Shown piece after piece: positions 5,563 to 51,271 of a stretch of 64,000 bases of DNA. The notes under the pieces are model-generated. The model worked only from the letters and a program-made list of their open reading frames with translations. It had not been told where the DNA came from and ran no database searches. Made by a program: the position numbers and the translations under genes. This stretch comes from Yuukianura sp. NJ FZ-2021 (taxonomy: Eukaryota). The stretch lies in assembly GCA_046563655.1 (NCBI GenBank), contig CM102288.1, positions 6,076,001-6,140,000 of the forward strand. The letters are read 5' to 3'. Every line of letters starts with the position of its first letter. Position 1 is the stretch's first letter.

Positions 5563-5785
5563 CAAGGTTCTTCAACAAAAAGGAAACTTTTTCTACATCA
5601 GGTTTTCCAATAACTCAAACGTTTAAAGTGTGTTTGGAAGTAGCAAATCTGCCGTTCCATGGTAATTTTTTGCATGTAATGTAAACGGGATTGGCGCTAA
5701 AAATGCTTTGAAGCAAGACTTTTGAAAACCATGACTTATACGAAAACCTGTTGTAGAAAATACAGTCCGGTTGTCAGGGAACCTT
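5563..5785. mobile_element. MITE of the CAAGGTT-TIR family
   Basis: Starts CAAGGTTC and ends GAACCTTG with imperfect TIRs. A related left end is at about 8434, with related copies at 13.6, 30.5 and 58.1 kb. Confidence 0.6.
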
Positions 5786-8700
5786 GGTTTTAAAATAACT
5801 TTTGGAATCCATTTTGAAAGTCGTTTGAGAGGGAAGTGGAGCAGAACGAAAGTTGAAAAGCGGATTACGTGTGACCTTTGACCTGGGCGTTTGTGAAGAC
5901 TTGCTGCGTCTGGCGTCATGTCAACCTTACTATCTTCATCTCTTAGCTTTAATCTCTTCTCTGCGTCACTTTCATTACAATTTGCCGCTGGAAAATTTTT
6001 ATGCTTTAAAGAACAGTCACGCAGTGATCCACTAAATTATTCTAAGCTAAAAAGCTACTTCAGTTGAAAAACAAATGCTGCTTTGAAGCAAATTTAAAAA
6101 CGCAAACATAACAAAAAACTTGAATTCTGAAATGCAATTTTTAAAACTATGAACGAATTTTTTGATTGAAACAATTTTCAGGCAATGAAAATCTGAAAAA
6201 AGAGTTTTAGTCCCCTAAAGCCTAAATCTAAAATCAAAACTTTGGAGAAAAAAAAATTGAGTTGGATTTGACATCCTGAGTCACGGGAAAGTTCAAACTT
6301 ATTTTTTGACTTTTAGTTGATTCGGAAAACAGGAGTAATAAAAAGTAGTGAAATCAAAAGTTGAATTCCAGCTGCTCAGAAGTTGCTGAACGAGTTTTAT
6401 AAAGGCAATTAAGACTAAAGGCTTGAAACAGCAGACAGTAACGAAAACAAAAGCGGATTTTAATAAAAGCGTTGAAAACGACGTTACAAAAGTAGCGACA
6501 GTGACACAGTTTTCAAGAAGTTTTCAGAAGAAAAAAATCCAATTGTGGAAAGATGTTTTGTTTTTTACCGCTTTAGTTTATGCGTTACTCATGACAGGCA
6601 GACAGACAGATAGTGGGACGGACGGACAGACAAACAGAGGGACAAAGGTAAACCATAAAGTAGCTCCCGGCAGTTAATGATGAAGATTCTTCAAAACCGA
6701 AAGTTTACACAAAAACAGGAACAAAGACGTTAGAGAAAAGATGAAAATTTAGAAAGACAGAAGTGTGACGGCAGAGATTGTGATGCAAGTGTAATAAATT
6801 ATGAAGAGCTGCACTCCGAACAACTTAAAATTCATGTCAGAATTAAATTCTGAACGAGTCCTCTCCCAAATTTCAACACTTCTCTACTTTGAATTCCTAA
6901 ATTCAATTCTCAACTTCACAAATTCACACTTTAAAGTTTACCAAACCTCCAATTCCCAACTTTCCAAATTCTAAATTTTAGATTTCAGCTTTAGCTTTCA
7001 AAATTTTATAAATTTCGCGAAGGTTTCAGTAAATTTCTTTCTGTCTTACCAAAAATGTTAAATTGAGTTCAAGCTTAAAGTTTCCGGTTAATATTTCTTA
7101 CAGGGTGCGGCGTAAACTGAAAGGGGTCTCAGTAGGAGCTTTACGGTACTTTTACTACTTTTGTGGAACTTTACGGTACTTTTCTTCCGAAGAACGACCA
7201 CTTCCACGCCCTACCACGACCACTGCTCGTTCACAACTGAACCTCACGATCTCTTTTGCTTCTGGAAAAACGAAGATCATGCACAGGACAAACTGCTGCG
7301 CCTTTTCCACGCCACCCACCACACGAACAAAACAGTCTCCAAAACTGGTTTTCAAAAAAAAAAGTTTTCAAAAAAATTATGGAAAAGAAGTTTGGGGTCA
7401 GCGGGGTCGAATTATAAAAATTTTGCGTTTAAATACACCTGATTAGAAATAAATTCGTCTTAAGTTTCCAATTTTTTTTTTTTCAGCTTTTTGGTAGTTT
7501 TTGAAAATGTTTTGATTTGATCGGTTTTCCTTTTAAGAAAATCTCAACTTGCCCCGGGAATTTTGGGTGAAATTTTCCGAAATCGTTTTTCTTCTAGAAC
7601 ATGAAAGTATATATCGACATGACCTTTTGGAGAGAAAAGATTTATGTTTTTCCGTGCAGATGAAGTTGATGGGGCTTCTTCCTATTACTTCTGTCCGCCC
7701 TCCCGAAAACTGTTGTGTTGTCACAGGAACCACGAAGGCAGGGGATCGCTTCAACCTCCCCCCACCAGAAAAAAAAATAAACTTTTAGTTCCTTTCAACA
7801 AACAGTTTTCGGGTAGTACGTGCAGCAAAAAAGGCAGAAAACTTGAAAAACTTTGATAAAGGACCAAAATATGGTTCAAACTGACAGAAAAATTCCGACT
7901 TTTGATTAAAATCGAAACAATGCTGTCATAATTAGAAAAACATTGCAAAAAGTTCCTTCTTTTGTGCAATTTTTTTCCTACCATGTGCCTAACCAGCCAT
8001 TTTTTTGCGCTCCGCGTGTTCAAATCCTGTAACCATCAATTTTTTTTGAAAAGAAGTCTGAAAATGGAATTAATTGCAGAGTTACTCCAGCTCATTGCCC
8101 AAAGTGTCACAAAAAAAGAGTAAAAAGTGGGTATGAAATCATACCTATTAATTTCTTTGCAATTTTCGTAACCTTGGACCAAGTTTTACTCACCCAATTG
8201 TGCACAAAATTACTCCCTGCAGACAGACAACTGCACAACTCAACACTTTTGTTCCAAAAACCAGCAGATTAAGACTTATAGTCCAAAATTGCACACTTTC
8301 ACGCGTCACATAACTTGCACAATGTACAAAATTTAGCAAACTTATCAGAATTGATACAATAATTTCTAAAAATATCACACTTTTGTTAAAAAATTAAAAT
8401 TTAGTACACACTCTTTCTTCAAACGGGTACAACAAGGTTCGTCAACAAAACAAAAAACTTTTTTCCACATCAGGTTGTCTAATAACTGGAAGTTTTAAAA
8501 TTTGATAGAACAAAATCTGATCTTCTATGGTAATTGTTTGCACTTTCGTTTTAAACTGCAAGATTAATTTGACTTTTGACTTATACTTTCACACTTTTAA
8601 CTTTTAATTGCTGCGCATTGAGTCTAGCCCACTGTTAATGTTGGTTTTAACTTTGTGTTATTTTAACCTTTTAACATTAAGTTTAACCTGAACATAGGTT

Positions 8701-22976: not shown

Positions 22977-25163
22977 TCAGTCATTCTTGGAGTGCAGAGT
23001 TGCCAATTTCAGATCTTCTTCGGTCAGAGTCTCCCCTTTCAACAACTTTTTCGTTACTTCTGGAGGATGGACTCTGGTCTTACGGTAGTGTTGTCTCAAG
23101 TTGCATCTCCGCTTAAACTCTGAAAACAAATGTAACATCAAACATCTTTCTAAATCTTTCGGACTTGGAATGAAATACACAGAGATTTTGGAAAGAAGGA
23201 GCAAGTTGCTTGTAACGACTTACTTTTGGGACACAAAGCGCATGGATATCTGTAGTCGTCCTTGTGGACTAAATTGTGATGAATCAGAGCCCTATAAAAA
23301 GTCACATTAGCCTTAATACAACTTAAGCATAACTCAATCTACTATATGTAGTTTAGTGATATGATTTTTATATGAAAAGAAGTATTGAAATTGAAATTGA
23401 AAATAAATTACTTGTTATGCTTGAAAGTCATTCCACACAGCGTGCAAAGATAGTTTCGATCCGAACTATGCTTTTCCAAATGAACCTATTCAAAAAAAAT
23501 ACAACTTCAAAAAAAAAACGAAAACAATTTTCAAACGCTTTTATATGTTAGATTAGGTTGAAGTTAAGGTTAGTTTAAACACTTTCCTACTGAAACGTAC
23601 AAAGGCCGTGGTCCTGTTGACCGTACTTACCTTAAGCATTGAGTTCGATTCAAAAATTTTGCCACAATGGGTACAATGAAGTGGAGGAGGCAAAGTGGCA
23701 AGGTCATTGTCAGGAAGGTCATCTTGAGATGTGGATTCAACAGTGTCTGTATTGTGACACATTTTCTCATGCCATGTCAAGTGGGAACTCCGCAGAAACG
23801 TTTCTGTACAGTCTGGAAACGAACATTTGAGAAAGTTGCGGTCGTGAGTCCGGGAATGCTGGTGCAGACTGGCATTGCACGACAGCGAGAAGTTGCAGTA
23901 GCCACACAACACATTCTTCCCATCACTTTTTTGGCAAAAGTGCGTTTTCAACATTTCGGAATCAAAAGTAGAAAAGTTGCACTTGGCACATTTTAGAGGC
24001 TCTTTGTTCTCGTGATCCTAAAAATCAAACAAAGTTGGGAATCAGTTTTCACAATTTCAAAAATTAGGCTTATGTTAGTTTAACAAAAGTTGAAATGTTT
24101 TTTTTATTTTTACCCGTTGAACATGATAGTGCATGTACCAGTGATACATAAACGTTGCAGGGCATCCTTCCACTGAGCACGGCACTCTCTCATGTCTGAT
24201 CTTCCGTTTCTCCGGTCTTGGTTTTCTTTCGCTCGGTGGCTTTTTAGGAGCTGTAGCCCACAGTGGGGCATTCCAAGTGGGATCCAATTCTTCTTCCGGG
24301 ATTGCTTCTTCCTCCTCGGAACTTGAATCGTCCCAGGAAAGAAATGAGTCAGAGTCTGACGATTCATCTTCACTCGAGTCTTCACTGATCGAATTGGTCC
24401 TGGATTTCTTATAAGGCTGTTTGGAAGTTTGGTGTGAATCTTCATTGTGTTGGCGATTAAGTATTCGACCACTTCTTCTCGTGACAGGATGTTCCACTTC
24501 CAAGGGAACAAACGTTTCATGATCGCTTGGCCAGGAATCCATAGTCTGTGTATTGTCATAGTCATTCTCATGTTCCTCTGTCTCCGCAAATCCAGAAAAC
24601 GACGTTGTATTGACGTCGATGTTGTTTCTTACGTTGACTTTGAGCTGAGTAACTCCAGGTTCAGGTTCAGCGTATAACTGAAGAGCAGCGTCCACCAATG
24701 CCGTAAATGAATCCGGTGTCATCAGCTGACCATGTCTAGATTCCTTTGAACTTGTTCGGCGGTGCCATTCTCCAATTCGAGGCATGAGTTGACAAATGTA
24801 AGCAGAAGGATGAGAGACTCTGACAAGGTCGATGAACGATCCGTAAACGTTTGACAGAATTTCGGAACATCTGAGACACATTGACAGTTGATGGACTGTA
24901 TCCGCATTTTTCTTGAGATCCACTAAACCCGATTCGGAAAAAATACTGAGCAGGGCATCCAAAATTGTTATGTTTGCAACTTCGGAGTCTTGGATGGCTG
25001 GTTTTTGATCTCCATCGGTTGGCTCTGAGTCGGAATTAGCTTCTGGTAAAAACGAAACGACAATGTTACGAACTGGCTCCGCTTCGACGAAGCGTGTATA
25101 ACAGTTGATGCATTTCTTCTTTTTGAAGCGGCTATGTTGCACCCTTTCAGTTTGAACACTCAT
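22977..25163 (-). CDS. ZAD-like/C2H2 zinc-finger protein (exons 25163-24114, 24017-23631, 23485-23412, 23291-23224, 23119-22977)
   Basis: N-terminal CxxC...CxxC (CINC/CLRC), acidic linker and about 7 C2H2 fingers; splice junctions keep frame. Confidence 0.85.
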
Positions 25164-26143
25164 TTCGCCAACGGACAACAGACTTGGGTAAAAGAATGAA
25201 ACTAACCAAAGGTCAAATTCAAATTTATTTCTGATTATTTGTAATTTGTAATTGCTTTGATATTTAAATATTTACCATTCCTTACCGTTTACTCCTTTAC
25301 TCTCCAATTCCAGACAAGTGGAGTTCTTCGAATCACCAAAATGTGTCTGGCCACTACTCGAATGTTAGCTTTCGCTTGAACTGGGCGGGGTGACGAAGGC
25401 GATGATGACCAATAATATGACACAATTACTTTACTAATTAGTAAGATTAAGATAGCGTACGAACTAATCAACAATCAACTAAATAAAACCAATTTCTCCC
25501 ATTGTATTTTAGTTTTTGTTTTGCTTAAGTCATGTGTTGGACTCCTTCCTAGATTGATTTCCCGCCGGCTGTATAACCCAGCAGGGGAACCGGTGAGCAC
25601 TAATCCTGTGACTTGCTGAATTACCGATATCTCGAGAAGAGTATCTCAGAAATATCGCAAGCCGAGAAGAGCCTGTCACTAATGTCGCGAGTAGTGTATC
25701 CCAAATATATCTTTCAAATAACTCGTGATAATAATGGCCAAGAACGTCCAGAAGGATATCTGAAGCATATTGCAATGGAGATACTTTTTCTGAGGTATTT
25801 TGGCCGTAGTTTTTTTTTTTTCACTTGAGAGGAGACTAGACACAATGGGATCTTGCTTTTCGAAAAATAATCGTTCTAGAATCGTAGTGCTAACCTAATC
25901 AGTGCTAATCTGGGAAAAATGTGGTAAACTCTAGTTTAAATCTAGTTTAAATTTTAATCTAATGTTAATTAATCAAATCCAGCATTTTTGGCATGGTTCT
26001 GGTTCCTGGCAACTCAAATTATCACGGTTTGTTGTCGAAGGTATTTTCCAGAATTTCGGGGTGCGTCTTATACACGAGAGCGTCTTATAGGAGAACGAAT
26101 ACGGTACCACTGTAAGCCCTTGGTTTTGACATGCAGTGTGACC

Positions 26144-28696
26144 TCATACGAAAAGCCACCAAAACGCGTTTTTTACACTAGAGACTAAAATCGGCGTTAA
26201 TTCAACGCTCAAAACGAGGAGGCAAAAAAAGAAGCAAACTCCGCAAACCATAAAAAGTGTTTGGATGTTAGACGACAATTGAACGGGTTTGACGTGATTG
26301 GCCACCTTGCGTGACAAATGAATTTCTTCATTTGGATCAATATAAATAGTTGGCTTAATCCGCCGATGCCACTGGAACCACTGCGGCAGAATTCCAGATT
26401 GCATCAGGAGATGAAACTGTCGGTACATTCTGGCAGTGGCTGGTCGATGAAAATGAGGCAACAGGAAAGCGTTCCACATCTTGAAGAGCTGTGACTCCCC
26501 TTTTTTATAAGGCCCATGACCCTTCTCCTCTGCAATGGCCATGATAGTGTCCAAGTTGTCGTCATAGTCAATGTACCCCACATTGTCACATGATTTGGTG
26601 AGGTTGACAATGTCCTCATAGTACGAACGGAGACTTTGTTTGGGAACAGTTGAACCCCACCACAGCCCTTGTCTGCTTTGAATTACAATAAATGCATGAG
26701 CAAATGGCACGGGCGTGGCGCCCAGCGACTTCTGCAGACCCTCCTTCCAAGCCACGACCATAATCGAGTCGCAGAAAACTGATGAATTTGGATACCAAAT
26801 TAAACGGTTTTCTCGGTAAGCAAGATCCAGCATTTTGACTTTATGATCATCTTCGTTGTATGAGCAGAAGCCCGGAGGCATTTTTGTCGGAATGGATAGG
26901 TTCATCATGTCAAAAGTATTGCGCAGTAAGGAACAATTTTTACCTGGACTGCCGTAGTTGTGTCCATCCCAATTCGAGCAAAGGGCACCCACACCACCCT
27001 TGTTCAGTCTCGTGATTTCCGCGTTGAGCTCCGGATAACAAATACAATTGCGTAGATTTGTAATGAAGTTCCAATCTTGCCCGTACGGTTGAAGAACGTA
27101 AGGGTTTTGCTCAACTAAAGTAATGTGCATGTCCTTGTAGGTTTGGGTGGCATAGAAAAGGAACCCTGGCATCTCCGTGACGTTGACGTGCGTCGCGGTG
27201 ACGTTTGCGGGCAATGTCAATTCCGAAGTAACGATTCCCTTGTAAGCCCCGGCTAGAACGATCATCAGAAGTAGCCAACTTCCAAGTACGAATTTAGTCG
27301 CCCGCATTGCCCCAGGAACGTTTTGGAGGCTGTGTGGAAAGGTTTCGCCAATGTCGAATGTTCCTGCGACATTAAAGAACAAAACTTCGTTCATGAGCTG
27401 GACATTTTGACGCCATGTAGCTGGTGCTGCCAAACTCAATTTCCTGTATAATATTACGACAAGGGGAAAAATTACGAGGATGCAAGCAACATAGACGATC
27501 CATGTGGTCATGTCGTAAGGTGCTACGTAGAAAAAGAAGTTTAGGCGTTGCTGAACCCCGTCACAGGTCATAAAGGTCATCCATCGCTGCCCGAGTTGTA
27601 GTACCGACCGGTGGACACGGAATTTGTCATCAACAAATGGCGAGTAGGCCAGGTCTTGCAGTTGAATTTTGTCCAACATATTGGAGCTTGCGATTGTCAA
27701 TTGTATCTCCAATTCTTTTACGGATTTGGTATCGCTTTCGAAAAAAATCCTTAGGTCAACTCCTTCCAGTAGGAGCCATTGGGTCAATGTGACGATACTC
27801 GTATGATTATAGACTTCTGGCTTTGACCTACCCGGTGACCCAATGTGTATCCGCGTAATGTCCTTGATATGTTGAAACCTCGGGTCATTTAGTAACAATG
27901 ATCGATTTCTGTACAACTCGGTTGCATTCGCTGAGCAGTTTGCGTTATAATCCAACGCCACCGTACATTGTCCAGAATAGTTGCCCGGGACAACTATCAA
28001 TCCGTCCAGAAACGGTTCCATGATCTTGTCAACCGTGGATCTACATGATGAGTATCCTGTCGACCCATTGTGGCATCTTCCCATTTCTACTTTCTGCGAG
28101 AAGGACGTCCACCAACCAAAAGGAGGCATTAAATAATTGGAGTACGGTACGTTACCAAACGTCATCGTTGCGTCCATGAGCTCATAGTAACTGGTCATTA
28201 TACTTTTCCGTTCGGCATGCCTCCGATACACATAATGCGTCATGAACAAGTTTTGCCGCGGTAACCTATGTAGTTCAAGCAGTTCTTCATCTTTAATCAG
28301 TTTTCGATATGGGTCGTCTAGCAGTACATTGACGTACATGGACCGGTAAGCTTCGGGATCCGGGTAATAGGGATGGAAGAAATCCCAAAAATCATCATTC
28401 TTCTCCAACACAGCTTCTGGATACACTATGAATAATGCAATTGAGTAATTACTCTTTCGCCATGACCTGTGAACTTCGAATTTTCGTATTGGCAGCTCAA
28501 CCATCATCGAGGGAACAGAAGTAATCGGCCCCACATCAAGGTCGTATGAGGAATTTCCGACCTTGAGAATAAGAACTTCCGAGTCTGCGTATTCTGCTAC
28601 CAGTTCATTCACGCCTTCCAAAAACCGCACTTCCTTGGTTTCCGATAATGCAAGGAAACAGGCCGTAAAGATGAGCAGAGTTTTGAGAAAAATCAT
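26144..28696 (-). CDS. Divergent intronless ionotropic-receptor-like (IR) protein, 850 aa
   Basis: Signal peptide; TFMTC...FYVAPYDMTTW before M1; M3 WLLLMIVLAGAYKGIVTSELTLP; LMQSGILPQW; C-terminal M4 IQTLFMVCGVCFFFCLLVLSVE. Confidence 0.8.
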   Translation of the reverse strand: MIFLKTLLIFTACFLALSETKEVRFLEGVNELVAEYADSEVLILKVGNSSYDLDVGPITSVPSMMVELPIRKFEVHRSWRKSNYSIALFIVYPEAVLEKNDDFWDFFHPYYPDPEAYRSMYVNVLLDDPYRKLIKDEELLELHRLPRQNLFMTHYVYRRHAERKSIMTSYYELMDATMTFGNVPYSNYLMPPFGWWTSFSQKVEMGRCHNGSTGYSSCRSTVDKIMEPFLDGLIVVPGNYSGQCTVALDYNANCSANATELYRNRSLLLNDPRFQHIKDITRIHIGSPGRSKPEVYNHTSIVTLTQWLLLEGVDLRIFFESDTKSVKELEIQLTIASSNMLDKIQLQDLAYSPFVDDKFRVHRSVLQLGQRWMTFMTCDGVQQRLNFFFYVAPYDMTTWIVYVACILVIFPLVVILYRKLSLAAPATWRQNVQLMNEVLFFNVAGTFDIGETFPHSLQNVPGAMRATKFVLGSWLLLMIVLAGAYKGIVTSELTLPANVTATHVNVTEMPGFLFYATQTYKDMHITLVEQNPYVLQPYGQDWNFITNLRNCICYPELNAEITRLNKGGVGALCSNWDGHNYGSPGKNCSLLRNTFDMMNLSIPTKMPPGFCSYNEDDHKVKMLDLAYRENRLIWYPNSSVFCDSIMVVAWKEGLQKSLGATPVPFAHAFIVIQSRQGLWWGSTVPKQSLRSYYEDIVNLTKSCDNVGYIDYDDNLDTIMAIAEEKGHGPYKKGESQLFKMWNAFLLPHFHRPATARMYRQFHLLMQSGILPQWFQWHRRIKPTIYIDPNEEIHLSRKVANHVKPVQLSSNIQTLFMVCGVCFFFCLLVLSVELTPILVSSVKNAFWWLFV

Positions 28697-29457: not shown

Positions 29458-32400
29458 TTACAGGCGGGAAAAGGTTTCCTTGTTATTTTTAGAATCAGTA
29501 TGTTCTGACTCAAAAGACATCGTAGTTGGGAATGTCGTACCGTAGAATCCAGTCGGTGTTGGATTCAAATGGAAGTTCAACGGCATGGTTTGTGCCAGTG
29601 TTGTCGCTGGAAGTGTCGTCGCTGAGACATTGCGACTACTACGCTTTCTGTAGGCAAGTATTCGTGGCCTGGCAACAACTTTTGGAACGACTTGATGGAG
29701 ACATGATGGCAACAGGGTGGGTCGGAGGCGCCGTGTCACGGGTTCGACGGCCACTTCGCTACTACTTCCAGTACTTCCAGCATATGTACTTCCAGTACAA
29801 CTTATCTTCTCGTCCAGGAAACTGTACACTGGTATAGTTGGTGATACAAAGACCAGATCTCTCAGGATTTCACTCTGGGACAGTTTGGACGTAGACATCA
29901 AATCTGAAGACAGGACAAAGTGACGAAAGTCCGCATTTTTATGTTCGTGCCAAAGTGTGTCCAAGTGTAAGCGATCAAGCGTTTTCCTCCAGTCTAAGGT
30001 GTGTCTCCACCTAGAAAAAAAGCACAGATCACTAAAAAATTCAGTAACTAATAATATAGAAACTTCTTATCGAGGTTATCCCGTTATCCAAAACTTTATC
30101 CAAAAACCAAACACTAAATTATCTTAAGTTATTGAAGTCTATCGTTAGTTTTTTCTTTTTTTTTGTACCTTGCTTCGAATCCTCCAATCATGAGATCAAA
30201 CAATTCCTTGGAGTTGAGTCCAAGAATTCTGGAAAAGGACCATTCCGAAGGGATCGTGGGCCCTTCAAGGGACAAATCTTGAGCAAAATTCCTCTTCGGA
30301 AAGAGAGACCGATGTGTCCAGTGAGGATCGTAAATGCAAAGCTGATTCGGAAACATTCGGCGTCTTTCGGGCGGAAGTTCACACAAAAGTCCATTGTCAA
30401 ACAGAATCGCTGGGTACAAACTCCAAGGCAGCGTCATGTAAAACGAATGCTTTCGCTTTCGGTTCTCGTCTGGATCACTCTGCGTCTAGAATTATCAAAA
30501 TCCATTAGGAAAACCAATAAAAATAATTTGTTCTTATAAGTTAGGTTAAGGCAAGGTTCCTATAGAAACATAATAGAATTTCTTTAACAGGTTAGACACG
30601 GTCTAACCTGTTAAAGTCCCGGTTTCAGAAAAATCTCTGCCAACCTTTTTTTTTCACAAAGAGTTGTTTATCGCTTGTCTTGTCTTGTCTTGATTGTCTT
30701 TTCGTTTTTGAAATGGATAAAATTGTTTTGAAAAAATTAAAAACAAAAGCGACGTATTGCCTAACCTGTGAAAGAAAAAACTATTCTCTTGTTTACGAAC
30801 CTTGACTTACGGTTCTTCAAATTTTTTTAAATTTCGCATGGATTGTTTTTATTATTTGCTTTTAGTTAATTAGTTTATAAAGAGGATTAATTAATTTGTA
30901 CCTCTCTGAGTCGGATTGGTGTTGTCAGTCTATTCCCAACGTCCGAATGAATTAAATGCTTGACGGGGAACCATCTCCGGGTCAAGTTCGGACTTCGTTC
31001 CTTGACTTCTACAAAAAACAATTCAAGATTTAGGGTTAAATTACGAAAAATCCTTAGATTAAGAAAAGTTGTCCTTACCTATGGACACGGACTGTTCATT
31101 TCCAGAATGCGGACTAGCAGCATGGAATTCCATCTTATCTGCCCTCTCGTGAGCAGCATCTTGGTCATGTATCGGTCTGAAGCAATGTCTTATCTCTGCC
31201 AGTATTCCAGAACGCAGCGGTGGTTCAGCTCCCGATTGTTGCAAATAGTCAGAGCACATACTGGCAAGTTGCTTGGTGCGAGAAAGAACTTTGTTGTGCA
31301 AAACCGACCGGATACGAGACACCTACAACCAAAAAAAAAAAACACCAAAGCTTGAAATTTTGATGTACTGGAATACTTGAAAGTACTGGATACTAGGAAG
31401 TACTTGAATACTTACTCGCAGCACTTCGTCTCTGCACATGTGGACGTAGATTCTTCTGCGTTTCAAGTTCAGCATTTGGACCATCTTGGCCTCTTTTTGC
31501 CCCGCGACGGCCCTGACACCGCTTCCGCTTAAAATTTCCGAGGCAATTGACATTCCACTGTCGTCATAGGAAGACGAAGAGTCCACAATTTCCACAGAGT
31601 TGAGTGGTTCATGGATTGGCGGCGGTGGACAGACGACATGTGACACTGGCGACATCGGTGACTCTGCAGAGGCAGTCAGTTCGTCAGCATCGAATTTGAA
31701 GTAAGTGTCCAAGTTGAGGGCCGATGTCGCCGTGATGTTCATGTAGTCGCTCAGACTGTCGTCGTCTTCGTCCATTTCCTCGATTCTCTTCCTCTCTCCA
31801 GTGTCAACACACTCTTCATCGTTGTCTTCACGAGCAGTTTGGTTTAAATTTAACTTGTCATGTGTGATAGAACGCTTCATACAATCACGAAAGTCACCGT
31901 AAGTGTGTAACAGCTTATCCGGATCGTCTTTAAGTTTTAGCTCCCCTCCTATTCCGGTTTCATCAACTCCGATTCCGGTTTCGTGAACTCCGAGTCCCGG
32001 TACCAGCAAGGTGTCGTCCGGAATCAAGTCTCCGGTGACCGAACCGAAACGTTTTGAGATCGTTATGTCTGGAATTCCACCTGGAGATGGGCATTTGAGT
32101 TTGATGTCACAAATGGAGCTGGAGTGGCTGTCATTCCATTTTCGTTTTCTCTTGTGATCAGAACTGGATCCGAGGAATGACATCAAGTAGTCGTCCGCTG
32201 GTGAGTTTAGAGTTGGAGTTGACTTGTCCAAGTAATTGTGTAACTCTAAATCAGAAAGAGGGAATGCTGGATCTGTTTGCACTTTGACATTGTCACTGTC
32301 GTTGGATATCGGCGAGAGACCGAGGGAAGAGTAGCAGTTTGAGGGTGAAAAGGCTCCGGGGGATTGCTGTTCCAGCTTTTCGTTGAAGTAGGCCCGTTGA

Positions 32401-32858
32401 CGAGCGACACCCATTAGGTTCAGGGTGTGGATTGCTTCGTTAACAACGGTAACGGTACGCTTGTCATTCTCAATTTTCAACTGAGGTTGTAGTTGTATGG
32501 GCAGTGGAGCATTGGATTCATCGTCAGAGCCACTGGAATCACTTGAATGTCAGACAGAAAAAAGAAGATAAAATTGAAATGATTGATGAATGTTGAAAAT
32601 TGATTGATTAGGTTAGATTGATTGATTTCAAAAACTTTACCTCAGTCTCCCGGCAAAGAGTTCGCCCAAATAGTCCAGGTACGGTTTCAAATTGAGGGCT
32701 CGTCGGACTCGTTCTTCGTAGGGCAATGCTCTCTCGGCGGCTAACCTTTCTGCAACTGTTAACTTATTGTTCGGAACCAGCCGACTACTGGAGTTATTAG
32801 CTGATCTAACCGAACTGTCCCACCGCTGTTGGCACCGAGGAGCTCCTCCGTTCATCAT
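29458..32858 (-). CDS. INO80-derived protein lacking the Snf2 ATPase, 854 aa (exons 32858-32641, 32541-31416, 31322-31079, 31008-30902, 30485-30169, 30010-29458)
   Basis: Exons sum to 2565 nt, open, with GT-AG introns. Colinear blocks resemble the recalled INO80 N-terminus (VRRALNLKPYL; LSDLELHNYL), HSA/DBINO start (LNLKRRRIY...KQLASMC) and insertion domain (HRSLF...WSFSRILGLNSKELFDLMIGGFEARW; LRDLVFVS; PTLLPSCLHQVVPKVVARP). No Walker A, DEAx or HELICc motifs. Confidence 0.8.
30552..30804. mobile_element. MITE of the CAAGGTT-TIR family, in intron 4 of the INO80-derived gene
   Basis: CAAGGTTCC...TCTTTAACAGGTTAG at left and its inverse CTAACCTGTGAAAGA...GAACCTTG at right. Confidence 0.7.
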
Positions 32859-36523: not shown

Positions 36524-37151
36524 ATGAAGTTGGTTGGATTCTGCTTTACTTTCACCTTACTGTGGAGATTCAACGGTAATCAAGTAACTTGATTCAAGTT
36601 GTATTTGAAATCACGCGTTAAATCTTACTCGTTTTTCAATCGTAAGTCAAGGGTTTCGATTTTTTTTTCAAGAGTCTATCCGATGCTACCAGTGCAGCTC
36701 TGCCGAGGACAAGAAAAATGACAACTGCGGCGTGTACTCTAACTTTGACCGAGAACGCAACATTCCAGTGGACTGCCAGGGTGACGAGGCAGTTACGCCA
36801 GGGACATTCTGTGCCAAATTTACGCAGCAGAGTCCACGCAGCTTCATTTGGGATGGCAGGTTTGTACTGTAGAATAAACACGTTTTTCAGTCGTCCGCTA
36901 ACGATTACACTACGTTTATTTTCAGATGGCGTCAAGTAATACGACGATGTGCTTCCGTGTCTGATACTGGAGTTACTGGAGTATGCAACTGGGGAGTTTA
37001 TGAAAATGGGGTTTACTGGGAAGAGTGCTACTGCTCCGAAGATTCTTGCAACTCTTCAAGTCGTCTTGTTCCAGCGTCAATCGCTGTCAATCCCATCCTC
37101 ACCTTGACTTTTATGATCGTCTACTACGCAGCATCTAGATGTTGGATTTGA
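36524..37151 (+). CDS. Ly6/uPAR three-finger GPI-anchored protein, Drosophila CG6329-like (exons 36524-36575, 36673-36859, 36926-37151)
   Basis: Signal peptide, IRCYQC...FIWDGRWRQVIRRCASVSDTGVTGVCNWGVYENGVYWEECYCSEDSCN and a hydrophobic GPI tail. Confidence 0.9.
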
Positions 37152-37998
37152 CATTCCGAAGCCTTTAAATTTCCATGTGTTCACCATTCCGTCCATTGTA
37201 AGGAGTGGAGCTAAACAATTTCTCTCTAAGAAAACAAATGACAGACATTCCAGCAGCCCAAGGCCAACTTTTATACATTTCTATAGCTTTAATAAACAAA
37301 TATTCTAGATACTCATAATAAGTTCATTCACTCCTAATTAAATAATTAAATTAGCTCTTGTTCTAAACGAAATTATCCGAGAAAACAGTGGTTGCAATCC
37401 TGCCGGAAAATCTGACTATTCTTAGGATTAGCGAAGCCTACCATTCACCAAACACAGAAGGAAAACGTTGAAGTAAGGCTATTAACCACATCATGTAATC
37501 GTTAGGTTTACGTAATGCGTGCAATTTTCTCATAATTTAGTAGCTTACTTATTATAAAACAATTATATTCTTATTATACTATTATATTTATATATCATTA
37601 TTATATTGTTATATTATTATATTTATATGTTATTATTATATTATTATATTATTATAGTATAGTTATGTACTTATTTGATTATTTTATCATTGATTTCATT
37701 TACTAATCTAATCCTACTTTTGTCCTAATCTAATCAAAATGAATTTTAATTGGAACAGATGCTGTGCCTTGCAATTTGTGGGTACAATGGAGGACTATAA
37801 CCTAGCATTTTTTATCCTCAAGTCAGCTGTTTTTTTTCGAGCATTTTGTGCTCGGTTTTTCATAATGTTTTTCATAAGGTCTTCTCCATCTCCTAATCTA
37901 AATTGGTAATTTACGTTTACCTTCCAACAATTGTACATTAATCCAATGTTTTTTAAGTTGTACGGATACAGCATTGTTCAAGACGAGTAACGGCTGAC

Positions 37999-38372
37999 AT
38001 GGGTTACCATGTTATTCTAGTGAAGCCGGATAGTCCGGGTCACAAGGCGGGATTTGAAGTAAGAAAGATTTCCAGCAAACAACGATTTCCAACTAATGCA
38101 AAACGTTTTGTCCTGCAATTTTGTTCTGTTTACAGGCATTTTTTGATTTCATTGTTGCCATCAATGGAGTTCAGTTGGACAAGGTGAAGGATGCAGAACT
38201 AAAAAATGTGTTGGGTAAGAACGTCGATGGAACGATCCAATTTGTCATCTACTCATGCCGGACGAGGAAGATCCGAACAGTGGTCGTCACTCCTTCGGAT
38301 GGACCGATCCTCGGGATTTCCCTTCGACCTTGCTCTCACCGCCAATGTCAAGTGGAGCCAAGAACTCTTTAT
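37999..38372 (+). CDS. GRASP55/65-type PDZ domain exons (37999-38058 and 38136-38351 or -38372), probably the 5' end of the SCAPER gene
   Basis: [34 protein letters not shown]...IYSCRTRKIRTVVVTPS...LGISLRPCS matches the recalled GRASP PDZ1; only one PDZ is present. Confidence 0.8.
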
Positions 38373-38447
38373 GTCTGTCACATTGTCTTAGCTCTATCAA
38401 TCACTTACACTTACCAATTCAATTTCTAACAAACTTCTTATTTCCAG

Positions 38448-41400
38448 ATTGACTTTTGTGATATGGAGACAGTGACTGTAGAAAAGACATTGGAAGACAT
38501 AGACATCGAATGTCCAGAGTTGTCCGAGGGCAATACAAGAACTATTGGGCTCCAAGTGGACTTTGAGGATCCTGACATCTACTACTTCGCTGGTGGACGA
38601 CACGTAGCTCTCCAGACGGACAGCACAAACGAAGACTTTGGTCCACTCGATTCTTGTCCAGAACCCACTCCAACACCTCCAAAGACTATCGAGAAGTCCG
38701 TTACAGCACCAGACATGTCTTCCAGGGTTCGTCAGCAAGAAGTTCGTCCAGAAAGAAGTTCCAAGACACTCCCTAATGCTAGTACTATCAAAAGTAGGCC
38801 AATTCCTGGGAGTTTATCTCATTTTGTGCCTCGTCTGCCCAATTCAACTTCCACTTCGAAGCGGTTTGCTCAAACACGCTGCAGCCAGACACAAATTCAA
38901 GATCGACTTCGTTCTGCTCCGGTGGTTCCCGCGAAAACTCAGACCAAAACTTCCACTGCTATAAAACGTGATATCGGAGAAGGTGAGCTGTTTTTTTCTG
39001 AAACTTTCAGAATTCATTAAAAAAAAAGTTGTTTGAAAATTTTGGTAAATTGTTTTTTTTTTGTAGATGGGTGGGAAACAGTGCGAAGTCGTAACAGTCG
39101 TTCCAAATGGTCGCTATCCAGTCCCTCTTCATCTTCCTCGAACAATGATCTAACTATGAGTAGCACTAATGCTGTCGACATCGGAGTGGGAGTGCCAGGA
39201 GATGATGCTCTGGAGTGGAAGAAAGTTGAGGAGACCGTGGCTGCTGAGGAGGAACGTATCCAGGAGAAGGATGTGGCGCTGGATAATGCCATTAGAGAAG
39301 AGGAGTTGATTGAACAAGAACTTCGTCAAGTGGAAATGGACTTTCAGCAGATTGAAAACGAAGGAATCTCATCTCAGAAGTCAAGAGTGTGTGATTTGGA
39401 GTCAAAGATACCCGAAACGGAGGTGTCACCAAGTCCAACTCCGGCTGAAACAGGAACGTCGACAGTCGAAGCTGAAACTGGAACGAGAATGGAAGTGACA
39501 GGAGGTGGCAGCGGTGACGAAGTGGACGATTTCTTCTTCATTGACCTTGCGATTGGCAACAATTCGAACTCCAAAGGTAAATTCAACAACACTTTACATT
39601 TCCGGTATTGTAACCTTACATAATTTTACATTGACGTTTTACTTTTCCACACTTTTACTTTAACACACTTTTATTTTTCCATACTTTTACTTTTACATAA
39701 TTTGCTATTGTGTGTTTTTTTACAGGTGGAGAAGATACACAGATGAAAGATTCAGACCGAATTCTGGCACTGCGTGAGAAATTAATGTCGCCAGCCAAAT
39801 GTCGTGACTCTGCTGAGACACTGCGGCGACATCAAGCTAAACTAGCAAAAGCAGAGATGAACCGAGAAAGACTGCTGGAGGCCAAATACAATCGATACGT
39901 CGAGTTGAGCGAACGTGTAAGTAAAAGTGCTAAACTTCGACTAAAAGTCAAAATTTCAAAAGCTAGAACTTCAAAGTAGCCTTTTTGTCAATTTTTTTTT
40001 TCAGTTTCAAACTTTAAATGAGACAATGCGGAAGTTGGTTGAGGAACGTTCAGAGTTGATAGCACGAGCGGAGGATCGTCGTAAGCGAGCAGTGGAGAAG
40101 CGACAACAAGTGCTGCTGGATATCAAACGGAAAGCACATGATGAAGAATCTAAAGCGAAGGAAATTGCTTTCATCAACTTCCTGGAACTGCAAATCAAGC
40201 GGATTGGATTTCTGTCGTCAGCTCATGCCAAAGAAATAGTAACGTCAAAGGTCATGCAATTTGAAATTTTGAATTTCAATTAGAAATTTTGAAAAAGGAA
40301 GTCGGTGGACGGCTGCAGTCGAGAGAGGAGGAGAGAAAACTCAAGTTGGAAGACAGATTTCAAAAACTGGCAGCAGTGCTGGAGAGGCAGTCAAAAATTA
40401 AACGGGATTGGGAGGTAGGATTTGAAATTAAATATTTTTTTTTTTTATAAATTCTGTACGATTCATGTCATATTTTTTTTTTTTTTTTAAATGTAGCAAA
40501 AGTTGGCTTTGATGCAGGACAAGAGAGGACGCACTTCAGAACGGATTTTGAGAGAACGACAGAAAAGGGCGAAGGAACGGACAGAGTTGGCTCAAGAAAA
40601 AGCACGGTAGGTCTCAAAATTTTTGATACAAATTCAAAAATTTTGAGTTTGTATTAAAAATGTTTGTGACTTTTGGATAAATTTTTGTATAAAATTGAAT
40701 TTCTAAAAAAGTATTGCTGATTTTTTTTTGTTTTTGTTTCAGGGGAAGGAATGAGAGAATGTCAGCTCTGAATGCTGCCAAATTGGCAAAGAAGGAGGAG
40801 CTAAAGAAGACGATTGCGCAGAAACAGCAGGATACTGCCAGAAGACACGAAGAAAACATCGAACACATTCGGCAGAGAGCAATCGAACTCAGCGTTCCGC
40901 GCGTTTCCGACGAAACGACCGTTCGGATCTGCACACTCTGCAAAGTTGTAGTACGTTTTTTTTCTGATGTTGAATTTGTGACTTTTTGAAATTCTGAGAT
41001 GGTTTGAATTTTTGAAATTTTGAAATGATGCCAATTTCGAAGGCAACCTTTTAAAATATGTTGGTCTTTTTAGATTCAATCAGAAGTGCAGGAATTAGCC
41101 CATTTGAGAGGCAGAGCTCACTTGGACGCCGTGAAGAAAATGGACAAGCAGAGTGGGACGGCTGCCAGCATTCCGGTGGGAAGTGGGGCCGTTGCCACCG
41201 GCCAATCAGAGACTTTTGGACTCAAGTTCATTGCGGACGTCCAGGAAGAAAAAGTAGAGCCAGGAGTGACGAATGACAGGAATCGACTCAAGCTCAGAAA
41301 GAAACACTGCAAAAAACTCCTCCAGAAATTGGCAACCAGGTAAACTTAAAAAAAGATTTTCTTCTTGAAGTTTTTCAACATTTTAAAACAAAGATTCAAA

Positions 41401-43684
41401 AAAAAAAGTTTTTTTTTTCAGTGGAAGTGAGTTTGAGGCTGCTGAAATTCGTGGAGTTGTGACTGGAAAGGAGCAAATGGCAAGCAGAAGTCAAATTCAA
41501 CGAAACATTCGAGAGTTGGACAGACTTGTGAATCTGTTCAACGCCCAGCGTGGAACAGTTTCGCTCGCGAATACTTTGGATCGACTTCTGGTCGACACGC
41601 GAAAAGCTGCTGTTAAGGTTTGTCACTTTCTCGTATTTTATAAAGATTTTTGAAAATTTTTGAACGCTAAGATTCAAAATTTCAGAAGTTGTCAATTGCT
41701 GTTTATTTTTCTTTTGGTATGCTATTTTTAGTGTCGTGTTATCCAAGATTCGTTGGTTGGAATGAGTTTGTTTCCGGTTCTTCAAAAAATTTATGCTTGC
41801 AAGTCACCCGATTTGAGAAGCAGGTTAATTACATAGTATATAAATAATACATAATTACATAAATGATGTAATATGGAAATGTTATGCAATTATGTAATTG
41901 AACTCGAAGTGATGTAATGATATGCTATTGTTTGAGCAGAGTGTTGGTGAGTGCGTGTAATCTTCTTGTGGGAGCAGCTTTCCGTAATCTGTACAACGCA
42001 GTCTATGTCATCCGCAGCTCAGTCATTTGCAGCATTCTGGAACTGGCAGCTACTCGATGGGAGGTAATGTAAAGACAAAAATATTTTTTAAAAAGGATTT
42101 TTTTTTGAAAAAAGTATTTTTTTTTTGAAAAAAGTATTTTTTTTTTTTGAAAAAAGTATTTTCTTTTCTAACTGAAAAATTTTACTTGTTTTGCATTAGA
42201 TGTTCATACCGGACGGACATCGTTGGCTCGCGGGGTCACCAGTGGCTCACACAGACCAGCTTCCAGTTGATCCCGTTGTGGGTAAATCAGAAACAAACTT
42301 AACTTTTCAGCATTTTTAGTAATTTTTTGTCAGTAAGTTCTAAATTCAGTAAACTTTTTTTTTGAATGTAGCTGCCTTAAATGAAGCTTTGTTCACCGTG
42401 TTGAACGTAATTCCTGATCCGTTCGACGGAATTAGCAGCCCGAAACAAACTTTTTTGAACGAAGCGAACATCGCGTCAGTGCGTTCACGTAATTTGAGTA
42501 TCATCAGCTACATTGTGGGCTCTGGAATTGTGGATCGATTGGCCATTTACTGCAGTGGTGTGCGCGGAACAGTCGAAGACCAGTCGCATGTCGCCAGTTT
42601 ACTAAAAGATTCCATTGATCTCATGACCATGTTGGTGTACTCTCTCCAAACATCGTAAGGAAATCAATATGTATTGAATTGAATGTTGAGTTTGAAACTT
42701 CAAACAACATCTTTAAAAAAAAAATCAAAAGTGTGACTTCGTTTCGGCTAAATTTGACTTGATTTGAAGAAATTGTGTGCTGATGTTGTAGGTGGGATCC
42801 AAAGAAGCAAGAAACGACACAACTACTGGCAGCTTTAGAATCTTCTGACATTGTTGGATCCATTTCTATGTGCTACACTCTGTTACTACACAAAGATGCT
42901 CCCACAAGACCACGAGCACCAAGCTGTCCACTCAACGTACCTCCGCCGCCTGGACCTGTCTGTGCATCTCTCGTTTGCTCAACACTGTCACTCATCAATG
43001 CTTTTGCAAAGTTGGACATCACTAGACTTCAAGTAAGTTTCATTTTTTGATACAAACGTTTTTTTTTTTTGATTTCTTCAACTGATTTTACTGCAATCTT
43101 TTTTGCTGCAACTGATTTCTGAATTTTACTCTAATTTTTTTTTCTGTGATTTGCAGCGTGTGCTTGGATCTGAAGCGATGTCTTTGCAGTTTCGCCATAT
43201 TGCGAGTCAGTTGTTGTGGCAGGTAGTGCCTCATGCAGAAACTCAACCGAACTGTGCTCGTCTTCTGCACGAGTTACTAATCGCTCTAGGGAACTTTGCT
43301 GTTGGGAACAACACTAATCAAATGACAATCCAAGCAGGACAAACACCCACAGTTCTCCAGCAACTCTGTACTCTTCCAACCACTTACTTCACTGACATCA
43401 AGTTGTCTTGCTTCCTCCTTCCCACACTCATCGCAGCAACTTTCGGATGTCCAGAGAACCAAGACATTCTGAAGCAACAGAACGTCTCTGTAGAGGTCAG
43501 CAGCATTTGAACGTAAATAACTTCTATTTTTGTTACATGATTCTACTTAACTTTCACTTTTCAGATGCTAAACCGCTTTCTGGACTCCGACATTGGGAAA
43601 AGACATCCAGTTTGTAAACGAATTCGTCCAACGCATAAACCATCACTATCAAATGAGCAACCAAATCCAAAGACTAACGACTGA
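38448..43684 (+). CDS. SCAPER: SCAPER (S-phase cyclin A-associated protein in the ER; ssp3-like), about 17 exons
   Basis: DGWETVR motif, long coiled coil (RKAHDEESKAKEIAFINFLE), U1-type zinc finger (CTLCKVV...AHLRGRAHLDAV) and C-terminal helical region (LQFRHIASQLLW; QAGQTPTVLQQLCTLP); stop at 43682-43684. Confidence 0.88.
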
Positions 43685-48783: not shown

Positions 48784-51271
48784 CTACAGAACAGTAAGGT
48801 TGGAGTGTCCGCCATTGTCACCATGCGTGACTTTTGGGGGGCCCTTAAGGCATCCCCCGCTCCCTCCTGGCCCTTGACAACTTAAGTACCCCCCTTGTCC
48901 CCTTAAGTACTTGCTTTCGAATCCTGTCACCCTCTGTGACTCCTCTTCCGTGTAGTTATGAATAGAAATCAAGTGGAGATAAAGCTGTTTCCTCCGAACA
49001 TAACTCCGGTTGCAAATGTGGCAAATCGTCTTCGGTTTCAAGTTCGGCTTTTCCTTAAAAACTCGATCTCCGTTCGGCAGCACTCGGAAAATTGAAGGTT
49101 GGCGCATTTTGGCAGCAATGCGAGCCTCTTCTTTGTCCAACTTGTGGGTTGCCATTAGATGGTTCTTGAGATCATCTTTGAAAGCGTAGCCTTTGCCACA
49201 GAAGGAGCAGAACTCATCTACAATGGCCTTCTTCTCGTGCGTGTACTTTTTGTGCTGGTTTAAATGCGTTGCCAACTTGAAAGTGTTGCCACAAATGTCA
49301 CAAATGAAGTTCCGAGCGTCGTTGTGCGCAGAAGCAATGTGCATCTTCAGCCGATGGCGACGCTCGTACTTCTTCCCACAAAAGTCACATGTAAATCGCT
49401 TCCCTTCTCCGTCCACATCTCGATGCGTTTTTTCATGAACTTCAAGTCCACCTAGAAAAATTTCAAGAAAATAAAATTTAGTCTCCATTCTGACTTTAAC
49501 AATTTTTTGGCGGGTCATTCAAACTTCTCCAATAATTGGCGGGAAGATTCAACTTTTTTTCAAAAATTGGTGGGAAAATTATGAAAATTGGCGGGAAATC
49601 TTTTTCTTACCTCTGGAAGTGAAGCTGGAGCCGCAGAGGGAGCAGAGGAACATGCGTTGTTGGTTGCCATGGACGATGCTTGTGTGATGGAGGAGTGACT
49701 GCTTGGACATGAGGACTTTGTGACACAAATGACACTGGAACTCCGTCAGATGAAGGTGGACACACTTGATGTGTTCGATTAGCCTTCTCTGTGCTTTGTA
49801 CTTTTTGCCACACTGGGGACACGGGCGGTAGAGCCCTTCTGAAGGGACGACTGTCTCCATTTGGTCCACTTGACCATAACCCATGACCTCTTTGTGACAA
49901 TTCTCCTGATGAAGAATCCAGTCTTTGAAATTTGGAAAGCATAGGCTCTGCTGAGCACAGCCTTCGCATCTGTACTGGTCAGTCTTCAATAGTTCTGCGT
50001 CTGCGGCCAGCATCAATCGCTGTTCCAACGGGTTCCGCTTCTGTCTAGTCCTCCGAGTGGCCTAAAATATTTAAATAATTAATATAATATAAATAATTAA
50101 TTCATAAACTTTCAAAAACAAATCCTTATTGGAGGAATAGAACAATAGACCCCGCGTCCCCCAAAGTCATGCCCTACGCTCTAACGACTATGCCGTCACG
50201 CTCTTTTTCGTAGTTACCATGACAGATGGATCCAGTGGGTGACATTGCCGCTTATGTCGAGTGAGATTCTTGAAATTAGTGAAAGATGCTCGGCAGAGGT
50301 CGCAACCGACAGGTCGTGACCCCGCGTGCCTGTCCAAGTGAGATCGAAGTCTCAGCTGCGTAGAGAACTTTTCACAGCAAATTCCACACGCGAAAGAGCC
50401 TTGTTCCTGGAAATCAAAATGAAAGCGCTGAATTAGTTACGTCATTGATACTTAAACTTATTATACAGAATTGATTATTACATTTAAACAATTAATCGAT
50501 TACTTTACTTACCGGTTCCTTCTTAATTTCTTTCCGTGGTCTACCAGGACGTCGTTTGACTTTATCAGCCGTTTTTCCCGGATTCTGCTTTTTGGGTGAC
50601 GGAGGATGACGTCCGCTGTCAATTTCTTCTTCACCTTCAAACTCATCTGTCCCCTCATCAGCTGATTCGGCAGTGTCACTAGCCGAATGACTCAAGTTGG
50701 CTCCAAATGTGTCACGGTCAACGTCAGTATCCTTGATCCGAGACGAATGTCTCTGTGACCTCCTGACCTTGTCCTGAGTTGTACTCTGTCCAAACTGATT
50801 CACGTCGGATGTATTACAGCTATCCTCAAGTTCAGTTTCTTCCAACAGGCATTCCACTTTAACTGGTAGTATTTCATCCCCTGCTTGGAAGTTTTTGTTG
50901 ACTAGTTTTTGTACAAAGGAGTCTTCTACGGCCGTCTGGATGAAGTCTAAGTAAAGTTGAAGTAGGGTTTGGAACTTCTCACTGCAGAGGTAGCACAACT
51001 TGACCTGTTGAGATACACCTTCTTTCCCAAGGTCATCCGGTTGACACTGGCGGTTTTTGAACACAAGGAGGAGCCCTTGGAGGACAGTCAGAGTAGGAGA
51101 GCCCTTGAGATTATAAGAAGCGACATGGGAACTACTATTGGATGACAAGAGTACTAAACAGTGAGCACAAAATGACTGAGGTAGATCTGTAAGAGTGTCG
51201 TTCTGCAGTGGTTCCAGTTCGGATTCCATAAATGGTTGTGCACATGGTGGAAGTGAATCAACGTACTCCAT
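48784..51271 (-). CDS. ZAD-like/C2H2 zinc-finger protein (exons 51271-50513, 50406-50218, 50061-49611, 49451-48784; exact ends uncertain)
   Basis: CAHC...CYLC N-terminal domain, AT-hook-like RRPGRPRK and about 10 C2H2 fingers. Confidence 0.85.
50125..50202 (-). mobile_element. tRNA-like repeat, family C (intronic)
   Basis: Reverse complement ACGGCATAGTCGTTAGAGCGTAGGGC...TTGGGGGACGCGGGGTC. Confidence 0.5.

Follow-up and report, generated by a model that had tools for sequence, protein, structure and literature searches.

A probable chimeric gene joining a GRASP PDZ1 domain to a SCAPER without its N-terminal domain in Yuukianura sp. NJ FZ-2021

SCAPER, a human disease gene, encodes the adaptor through which recognised nascent tubulin is coupled to mRNA decay, and what its N-terminal domain does is less well understood than any other part. 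Most invertebrates have one GRASP, the protein represented by GRASP55 and GRASP65 (GORASP2 and GORASP1). Chimeric genes formed by partial duplication of a neighbour (exon shuffling) are a known class. Here we analyzed a gene at positions 37999-43684 of a 64,000-nucleotide stretch of DNA (the window; contig CM102288.1 of assembly GCA_046563655.1, positions 6,076,001 to 6,140,000, forward strand) from Yuukianura sp. NJ FZ-2021. We conclude that it is probably a real, inherited chimeric gene, in which the first PDZ domain (PDZ1) of a GRASP is placed on a SCAPER lacking the N-domain. In the literature searched, no report of a GRASP-SCAPER fusion was found.

PMC10403363 describes residues 2-350 of human SCAPER, comprising the N-domain and the cyclin A site, as largely dispensable for tubulin autoregulation. 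The essential parts, according to the same paper, are the central helices, which bind CNOT11, and the C-terminal domain, which binds TTC5-ribosome complexes; these parts are needed for TTC5- and CCR4-NOT-dependent tubulin mRNA decay in human cells. According to a preprint (PMC12632806), SCAPER brings gamma-tubulin to organising centres other than the centrosome.

The window gene was modelled as a single gene of 18 exons on the forward strand, with a predicted protein of ~1317 residues. With the donor at 38373 chosen for intron 2, the exons sum to 3954 nt (1317 codons) and the sole stop is the TGA at the end (43682-43684). Exon 1 (37999-38058, 20 codons) encodes the start methionine, the first strand and the SPG loop of GRASP PDZ1 and ends in phase 0. 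Its ATG at 37999 is the first in frame downstream of a stop at 37954-37956, and its donor is GAA/GTAAGA at 38059. Intron 1 (38059-38135; 77 nt, GTAAGA...TTTACAG) has a GC content of 0.35, compared to 0.47-0.48 in the flanking exons, and its position matches that of an intron in canonical GRASP genes (after ..GLE, before AFFDF). Exon 2 (38136-38372, 79 codons) encodes the remainder of PDZ1 and ends with ..PRTLY, again in phase 0.

A preliminary description of this DNA had proposed that these two exons encode one GRASP-type PDZ, and our searches confirmed this. In the Pfam scan that it had suggested, 38136-38372 matched GRASP55_65 at E 6.4e-7 with 30.2 bits (cut-off 27.7 bits). A search of PDB sequences with exon 2 gave 8 matches, 8/8 of them GORASP1/2; the best (3rle_A, E 6.4e-12) covered residues 37-106, which correspond to PDZ1. 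An AlphaFold model of exon 2 alone had a predicted local distance difference test (pLDDT) value of 72.6, and its top 11 Foldseek matches were all GRASP55/65, with modest scores because the model is without the first strand. By tblastn, exon 1 was 50-58% identical to GRASP residues 16-34 and 56-58% identical to both GRASP copies on contig L001, a metagenome contig of a related species described below.

The second PDZ domain (PDZ2) and the Ser/Pro tail of GRASPs, reported as missing by the preliminary description, were indeed not found in the 64 kb: with nine GRASP proteins as tblastn queries, nothing was obtained at E <0.01 outside 37960-38399, and the PDZ2 parts of the queries aligned weakly and to the same PDZ1 locus only. 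Nor did the tblastn searches locate a canonical GRASP in the 38 kb upstream or the 20 kb downstream. At the place where GRASPs have their C-terminal Ser/Pro-rich region, PDZ1 leads straight into SCAPER exons. An arrangement with SCAPER nested inside a GRASP intron was considered and rejected, as tblastn detected no later GRASP exons in the window.

It had further been stated that the module "still begins Met-Gly". The predicted protein does start MGYHVIL, but the Gly corresponds to the first residue of GYHV, a conserved strand motif, and not to the myristoylated Gly2, and Tyr3 and Ile6 are presumably unfit for the N-myristoylation pattern (PROSITE PS00008). The leader ..PGGG.EGYHV is absent in the window, where no homologue of the 20-residue leader of L001 was found upstream of exon 1. 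The fused protein of L001 keeps this ancestral leader, yet begins Met-Asp. Thus, exons 1 and 2 resemble GRASP55/GRASP65 in their homology to the first PDZ and in two intron positions shared with the canonical gene of L001, but the window gene differs in having no PDZ2, no Ser/Pro-rich tail and no Gly2 myristoylation site, and in being joined to an unrelated protein. With the Gly2 lipid anchor and PDZ2 both missing, the fused PDZ1 cannot alone be a GRASP-style membrane tether, and the earlier term "Golgi-tether module" was too strong for it. The sequence directly supports the assignment of the first two exons as a copy of GRASP (GORASP) coding exons 1-2, predicted to encode PDZ1 only.

We searched a library of 1.84 billion representative proteins with the PDZ using HMMER. 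SCAPER sequence was present in 0/107 matched proteins. The two best matches (P0007 and P0010) come from bacterial repeat proteins and were dismissed as spurious, and all others are GRASPs of the ordinary kind or fragments of exons. Three database proteins (P0068, P0076 and P0084) are like the window gene in that a GRASP PDZ and unrelated domains occur in one predicted polypeptide. Unlike the window gene, they contain both PDZs of a complete GRASP with unrelated sequence before or after, and look like merged gene predictions. A word-based search of exon 2 against longer proteins gave 33 candidates, none of them significant.

The remainder of the gene is SCAPER. Exon 3 (38448-38982) encodes an acidic linker, a conserved block (TIGLQVDFEDPDIYYFAGGRHVALQTD) and a disordered Ser/Thr/Pro-rich stretch, matches no family in the Pfam scan and ends in phase 1. 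Exon 4 (39067-39576, with 39576 as the true exon end) encodes the DGWETV motif and the first coiled-coil stretch of SCAPER; its GWETV matched residues 648-657 of an insect-like SCAPER (P0005), a match that is weak alone (tblastn E 6). Exons 5-18 (39726-43684) encode the SCAPER core: a central helical domain (..KAHDEESKAKEIAFINFLE..), a putative C2H2 finger divided between exons 9 and 10, and the C-terminal domain. The SCAPER of the springtail Orchesella cincta (P0002, so named at NCBI) was collinear over 39872-43498 by tblastn and 64% identical over the C-terminal exon 43157-43495, to which three more distant matches (one SCAPER-like, two with PF16501) were 44-49% identical. Exon 6 (..KAHDEESKAKEIAFINFLE..) shared 53-60% identity with the corresponding region in P0002, P0004 and P0005, and was tentatively mapped by eye onto human F628/I629/L632 (PMC10403363). 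Intron 9 interrupts the putative C2H2 finger (CTLCKV/..SEVQELAHLRGRAH), which agrees with P0002; as separate pieces it gives Pfam zf-U1 at E 0.086 only.

The N-terminal domain of SCAPER (SCAPER_N, PF16501) was not detected. The N-domains of P0004 and P0005 were unmatched on either strand of the window by tblastn at E up to 10, and likewise unmatched in L001. In Pfam, SCAPER_N was found in 0/33 open reading frame pieces of the window and 0/8 pieces of L001. The human cyclin A motif (RSL, residues 199-201) had no alignable counterpart in the window. A word-based protein search with exon 5 returned one 162-residue fragment only, and no full-length relative showing its N-terminus. The tblastn and Pfam results thus bear out, within the window, the absence of SCAPER_N noted in the preliminary description. 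Little room is left for hidden upstream SCAPER exons, as a Quiver/Ly6-type gene on the same strand ends near 37150. In comparison with canonical SCAPER (human SCAPER, C. elegans SCPR-1), the window gene is alike in its collinear central helical region, putative split C2H2 finger and C-terminal domain, but has GRASP PDZ1 at the N-terminus where P0004 and P0005 have SCAPER_N.

The two parts meet at intron 2 (38373-38447), a 75-nt intron with a GC content of 0.33, a pyrimidine tract and CAG. Its donor is TAT/GTCTGT, and the acceptor TTATTTCCAG/ATT sets the start of exon 3 at 38448. A branch-like motif, TTCTAAC, is located at 38424-38430, 18 nt ahead of the acceptor AG. PDZ and SCAPER share one reading frame, parted only by a single in-frame TAA (38427-38429; 18 bases before the end of the exon 3 acceptor), which would stop the frame if intron 2 were retained. 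Three GT sites in phase 0 lie near the PDZ end, at 38352 (CAA/GTGGAG), 38373 (TAT/GTCTGT) and 38385 (ATT/GTCTTA). Both in-frame donors named in the preliminary description (38352 and 38373) are present, the third having been missed; the acceptor that it described as opening the SCAPER frame is a good one, and its coordinates were all exact on recheck. The sequence directly supports that exons 1 and 2 could be spliced in frame, from 38373 to 38448, onto a SCAPER without SCAPER_N. In the gene as a whole, introns span 47-149 nt and exons have a GC content of 0.40-0.59, a range into which both PDZ exons fall, compared to 0.15-0.30 in introns 3-17. The least certain intron of the model is that between exons 6 and 7. 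Exon 6 apparently ends AAG/GTCATG (40251) and exon 7 starts after a purine-rich acceptor, GAAAAAG/GA (40298), giving an intron of 47 nt; the acceptor at 40283 (TTTCAATTAG) looks better but does not keep the frame.

A related species provided a comparison. Scanning metagenome contigs with the first SCAPER exon gave 305 pattern matches, of which one, L001, was confirmed. Its fused gene has the layout of the window, with two GRASP exons followed by the homologous SCAPER exon in the same phases. Exon 1 (5398-5514; GT at 5515) reads MDRLDEVKVPGVGGGGRGTEGYHVLGVQEKSPGAEAGLE, with the intron at the same position as in the window. Exon 2 (5612-5860) extends from AFFDF to WRTLY and has a consensus donor, TAC/GTAAGC. 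The junction intron of 134 nt ends TTTTTTAG, exon 3 starts at 5995, and the next exon reads DGWETV, as does window exon 4. The SCAPER exons of the two species are 50-87% identical, exon 4 being 51% identical to L001 7100-7555 and residues 1-71 of exon 3 being 53% identical to L001 6001-6219, including the residues that precede an ATG at 38463. The strong L001 donor lies at ..RTLY/GT, the same point as 38373, identifying 38373 as the homologous splice site of the two donors in the preliminary description. The in-frame joining of a GRASP PDZ to SCAPER, which that description had put forward together with a search of related genomes, is thus reproduced in L001 with consensus sites at both GRASP exons. 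The same arrangement in a related species indicates that it was inherited and is not an accident of the window's genome.

Between window 38526-38650 and L001 6100-6219, ~30-40 residues past the PDZ, we observed a conserved block, TIGLQ[VI]DFEDPDIYYFAGGRHVALQTD..[DE]FGPL. It matched no Pfam family and nothing in the other SCAPERs compared.

The PDZ exons could alternatively belong to a small gene of their own, which would encode ~118 residues with a single PDZ and end at the TAA at 38429, with SCAPER starting independently at 38463. The frame does run past the donor to a stop in both species, and intron 2 of L001 contains an AATAAA. However, the read-through tails are unrelated between the species (VCHIVLALSITYTYQFNF versus VSISLQEIPKLNKLQ). 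The gap between the window stop and the SCAPER ATG is 33 nt with no poly(A) signal, and neither AATAAA nor ATTAAA was seen on inspection of the whole 75-nt intron 2. In the window 75 nt, and in L001 134 nt, separate the PDZ exon from the SCAPER exon; these lengths are within the intron range of the gene and leave no room for a separate gene. Moreover, the SCAPER exon of L001 has a consensus acceptor ahead and no start codon near its 5' end: the TAG of the acceptor stops the frame, and no Met occurs in exon 3 before residue 28, so that this exon cannot open a protein at its 5' end. Its splicing to the PDZ exon would be the simplest reading. An operon of the nematode type, with a trans-splice acceptor 18 nt after the stop, was dropped because the closest named SCAPER is that of a springtail, which makes a springtail or a close ally the probable source of the DNA. 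To our knowledge, operons with trans-splicing are not known in hexapods, to which this closest named relative belongs. We consider a separate PDZ gene so improbable that it deserves hardly any weight.

L001 also contains the probable source of the PDZ exons. A canonical GRASP gene at 2325-3644 on the reverse strand stands head-to-head with the fused gene and encodes a Met-Gly start, PDZ1, PDZ2, the motif GYGYLHRIP and a His-rich stretch (Pfam 3e-28 and 5e-24). Its ATG at 3644 is 1.75 kb from that of the fused gene. The fused and canonical copies form inverted repeats over exon 1 (77 nt at 81%) and exon 2 (257 nt at 74%), and their intron positions are identical. With a complete GRASP head-to-head at this distance, the PDZ exons appear to have been copied, in part and inverted, from the neighbour. 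The 5' end of the neighbouring GRASP gene would have been duplicated partially and inverted, landing ahead of SCAPER; the old GRASP intron 2 would have become the hybrid junction intron, in phase 0 on both sides, and the ancestral SCAPER N-terminus would have been lost. Like other chimeras formed by neighbour duplication, the fused gene has duplicated 5' exons joined through a hybrid intron of compatible phases to the body of another gene. It is unlike them in that the GRASP donor is still adjacent, and inverted, in one of the two species, which makes the mechanism readable.

A 31-nt match (24/31) was observed within L001 between 3017-3047, inside the canonical PDZ2 exon, and 5987-6017, where fused exon 3 has its acceptor and opening codons. 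The match is collinear with both exon repeats, its score was reached in 1/300 shuffles, and it is absent in the window. The duplicated block may have reached into GRASP exon 3, with the acceptor derived from old coding sequence.

We next consider the selection acting on the PDZ. Between the window and the fused copy of L001, identity at codon positions 1, 2 and 3 was 0.585, 0.755 and 0.309, and the proportions of nonsynonymous (pN) and synonymous (pS) differences were 0.33 and 0.84, the latter saturated. Exon 2 aligned with z 8.2, intron 1 weakly (z 2.8) and intron 2 not at all (z 0.4). The two indels of the window PDZ relative to other GRASPs are multiples of three. This coding-type divergence with in-frame indels indicates that the PDZ remained protein-coding through most of the period after the two species diverged.

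Several observations, on the junction and the PDZ and also on the trees described further below, weigh against an inherited chimeric gene that is still in use. The comparison covers one other species, and the splice from 38372 to 38448 is predicted from the letters of the DNA. Donors were scored with a small position weight matrix (PWM) built from the other 16 donors of the gene, which themselves scored 2.0-9.3 when self-included and -0.8 to 8.6 when left out one at a time. The donor at 38373 scored 1.4, below all 16 self-included values and above 1/16 of the leave-one-out values; 38352 scored 2.5 and 38385 -1.8. The gene uses other poor donors as well (GTTTGT, GTTAAT, GTCAGC and GTCATG). Five codons into exon 3, the ATG at 38463-38465 is a possible alternative start in good context (G at -3, G at +4). 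The window PDZ is 38.5% identical to the L001 fused copy over exon 2 in the multiple alignment (42% by tblastn), and has lost four residues of the conserved WGGQG loop, deleted relative to GRASP55/GRASP65, as well as the whole N-terminal leader. A three-point estimate of nonsynonymous change (dN) assigned 0.35 to the window branch and 0.09 to the L001 fused branch. Of the three PDZ copies, that of the window has the weakest Pfam score (30.2 bits, compared to 73 and 99 bits).

These features would also be expected if the fusion were ancestral and the PDZ a decaying relic in the window lineage. Translation would then begin at the ATG at 38463, a codon lacking at that place in L001, or elsewhere in or after the PDZ exons, or the PDZ would serve as an untranslated leader. 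In contrast to what decay predicts, 99 codons remain free of stops, neither indel breaks the frame and the consensus sites of intron 1 are kept. With a pN far from saturation and a saturated pS, most of the branch was under constraint. By our own estimate, assuming that ~4% of substitutions make a stop, the probability of an open frame falls to <0.1 after 0.2 neutral changes per site. The residues preceding the ATG at 38463 (xDxxD) also match L001. We therefore regard a relic, the main rival, as unlikely and retain the chimeric gene as our preferred interpretation, in which the PDZ of the window lineage has evolved ~four times faster than that of L001 and may be under relaxed constraint.

The trees raised a further difficulty. 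In a PDZ tree of 30 of 80 rows, the L001 fused PDZ was sister to the canonical GRASP of the same contig, with support 97/96. Across the PDZ trees, the window PDZ was not placed with the L001 fused copy and had a branch of 1.1-1.4 changes per column. The L001 fused and canonical copies share 40 identical codons at 74 identical residues (26.6 expected at saturation), an excess greater than that between the SCAPER exons of the window and L001 (138/332, 119.7 expected). This pattern would fit two independent fusions, the window and L001 lineages each having copied GRASP exons 1-2 ahead of SCAPER. However, parallel events would have had to hit the same junction, after GRASP exon 2, in phase 0 and within two codons of the homologous SCAPER exon, and SCAPER_N is missing from both genes. 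RTLY closes exon 2 in both genes, in contrast to RILD, RILE or HIL in canonical copies, and both carry YSC instead of the YSS of most canonical copies. In addition, the approximately unbiased (AU) test rejected neither a clade of the window and L001 fused copies (p 0.62) nor a clade of the trio (p 0.90). We judge two independent fusions to be very improbable.

With a single origin of the chimeric gene, the sister grouping and codon sharing of the L001 copies call for gene conversion there or for a duplication of more recent date. We read them as gene conversion between the adjacent inverted copies, which are 1.8-2.1 kb apart; such conversion would account for the L001 pattern. Conversion would also explain the far drift of the window PDZ, which has no neighbour to convert it.

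The genes surrounding the chimeric gene were also identified. Directly upstream in the window is a two-exon Quiver/Ly6-uPAR-type gene (36609-37148, forward strand), whose two Pfam QVR matches, at E 2.7e-5 and 1.8e-4, fall narrowly short of the cut-off. The 850-nt spacer between this gene and the PDZ start codon contains an AT-rich tandem array at 37562-37687, with units of 8, 19, 27 and 35 nt. Three long open frames on the reverse strand (26144-28696, 24075-25268 and 31323-32546; 850, 397 and 407 residues) matched no Pfam family at E 0.001. Ordinary neighbours are a gene with leucine-rich repeats (LRR) and immunoglobulin domains at the left end of the window (1122-2834, reverse strand) and, downstream, a C2H2 zinc-finger gene (48784-50058, reverse strand). 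On L001, an exon of a PAP2-type phosphatase (390-578, forward strand; E 2.3e-9) lies beyond the canonical GRASP gene.

Since the central helices and the C-terminal domain appear to be kept in the window gene, the core function of SCAPER is expected to be unchanged, and this core would remain an adaptor between TTC5-marked ribosomes and CCR4-NOT. PDZ1 would add a handle for peptide binding or localisation in place of the N-domain, possible ligands being the C-terminal or internal motifs to which GRASP PDZ1 binds. It may thus act as an exchangeable partner-binding or targeting module. The gamma-tubulin recruitment reported in the preprint (PMC12632806) makes a Golgi-directed SCAPER an attractive, though speculative, idea. 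PDZ1 would then dock the TTC5-SCAPER-CCR4-NOT or gamma-tubulin-recruiting activity on the Golgi, through the C-termini of golgins or through canonical GRASP. We consider such docking quite unlikely; if it occurred, this animal group would have tied tubulin mRNA decay or the nucleation of microtubules to the Golgi, in place of the role that the SCAPER N-domain has elsewhere.

Gene predictors are likely to split or truncate the fused gene, and annotations of the group are worth checking. As an example of how chimeric genes are made, the locus is a clean case, with the GRASP donor next door and inverted in one species, the intron positions kept and the junction phase-compatible. The exchange of the SCAPER N-domain for the PDZ of a Golgi protein would amount to a natural domain-swap experiment, suggesting that the N-terminus of SCAPER is exchangeable.

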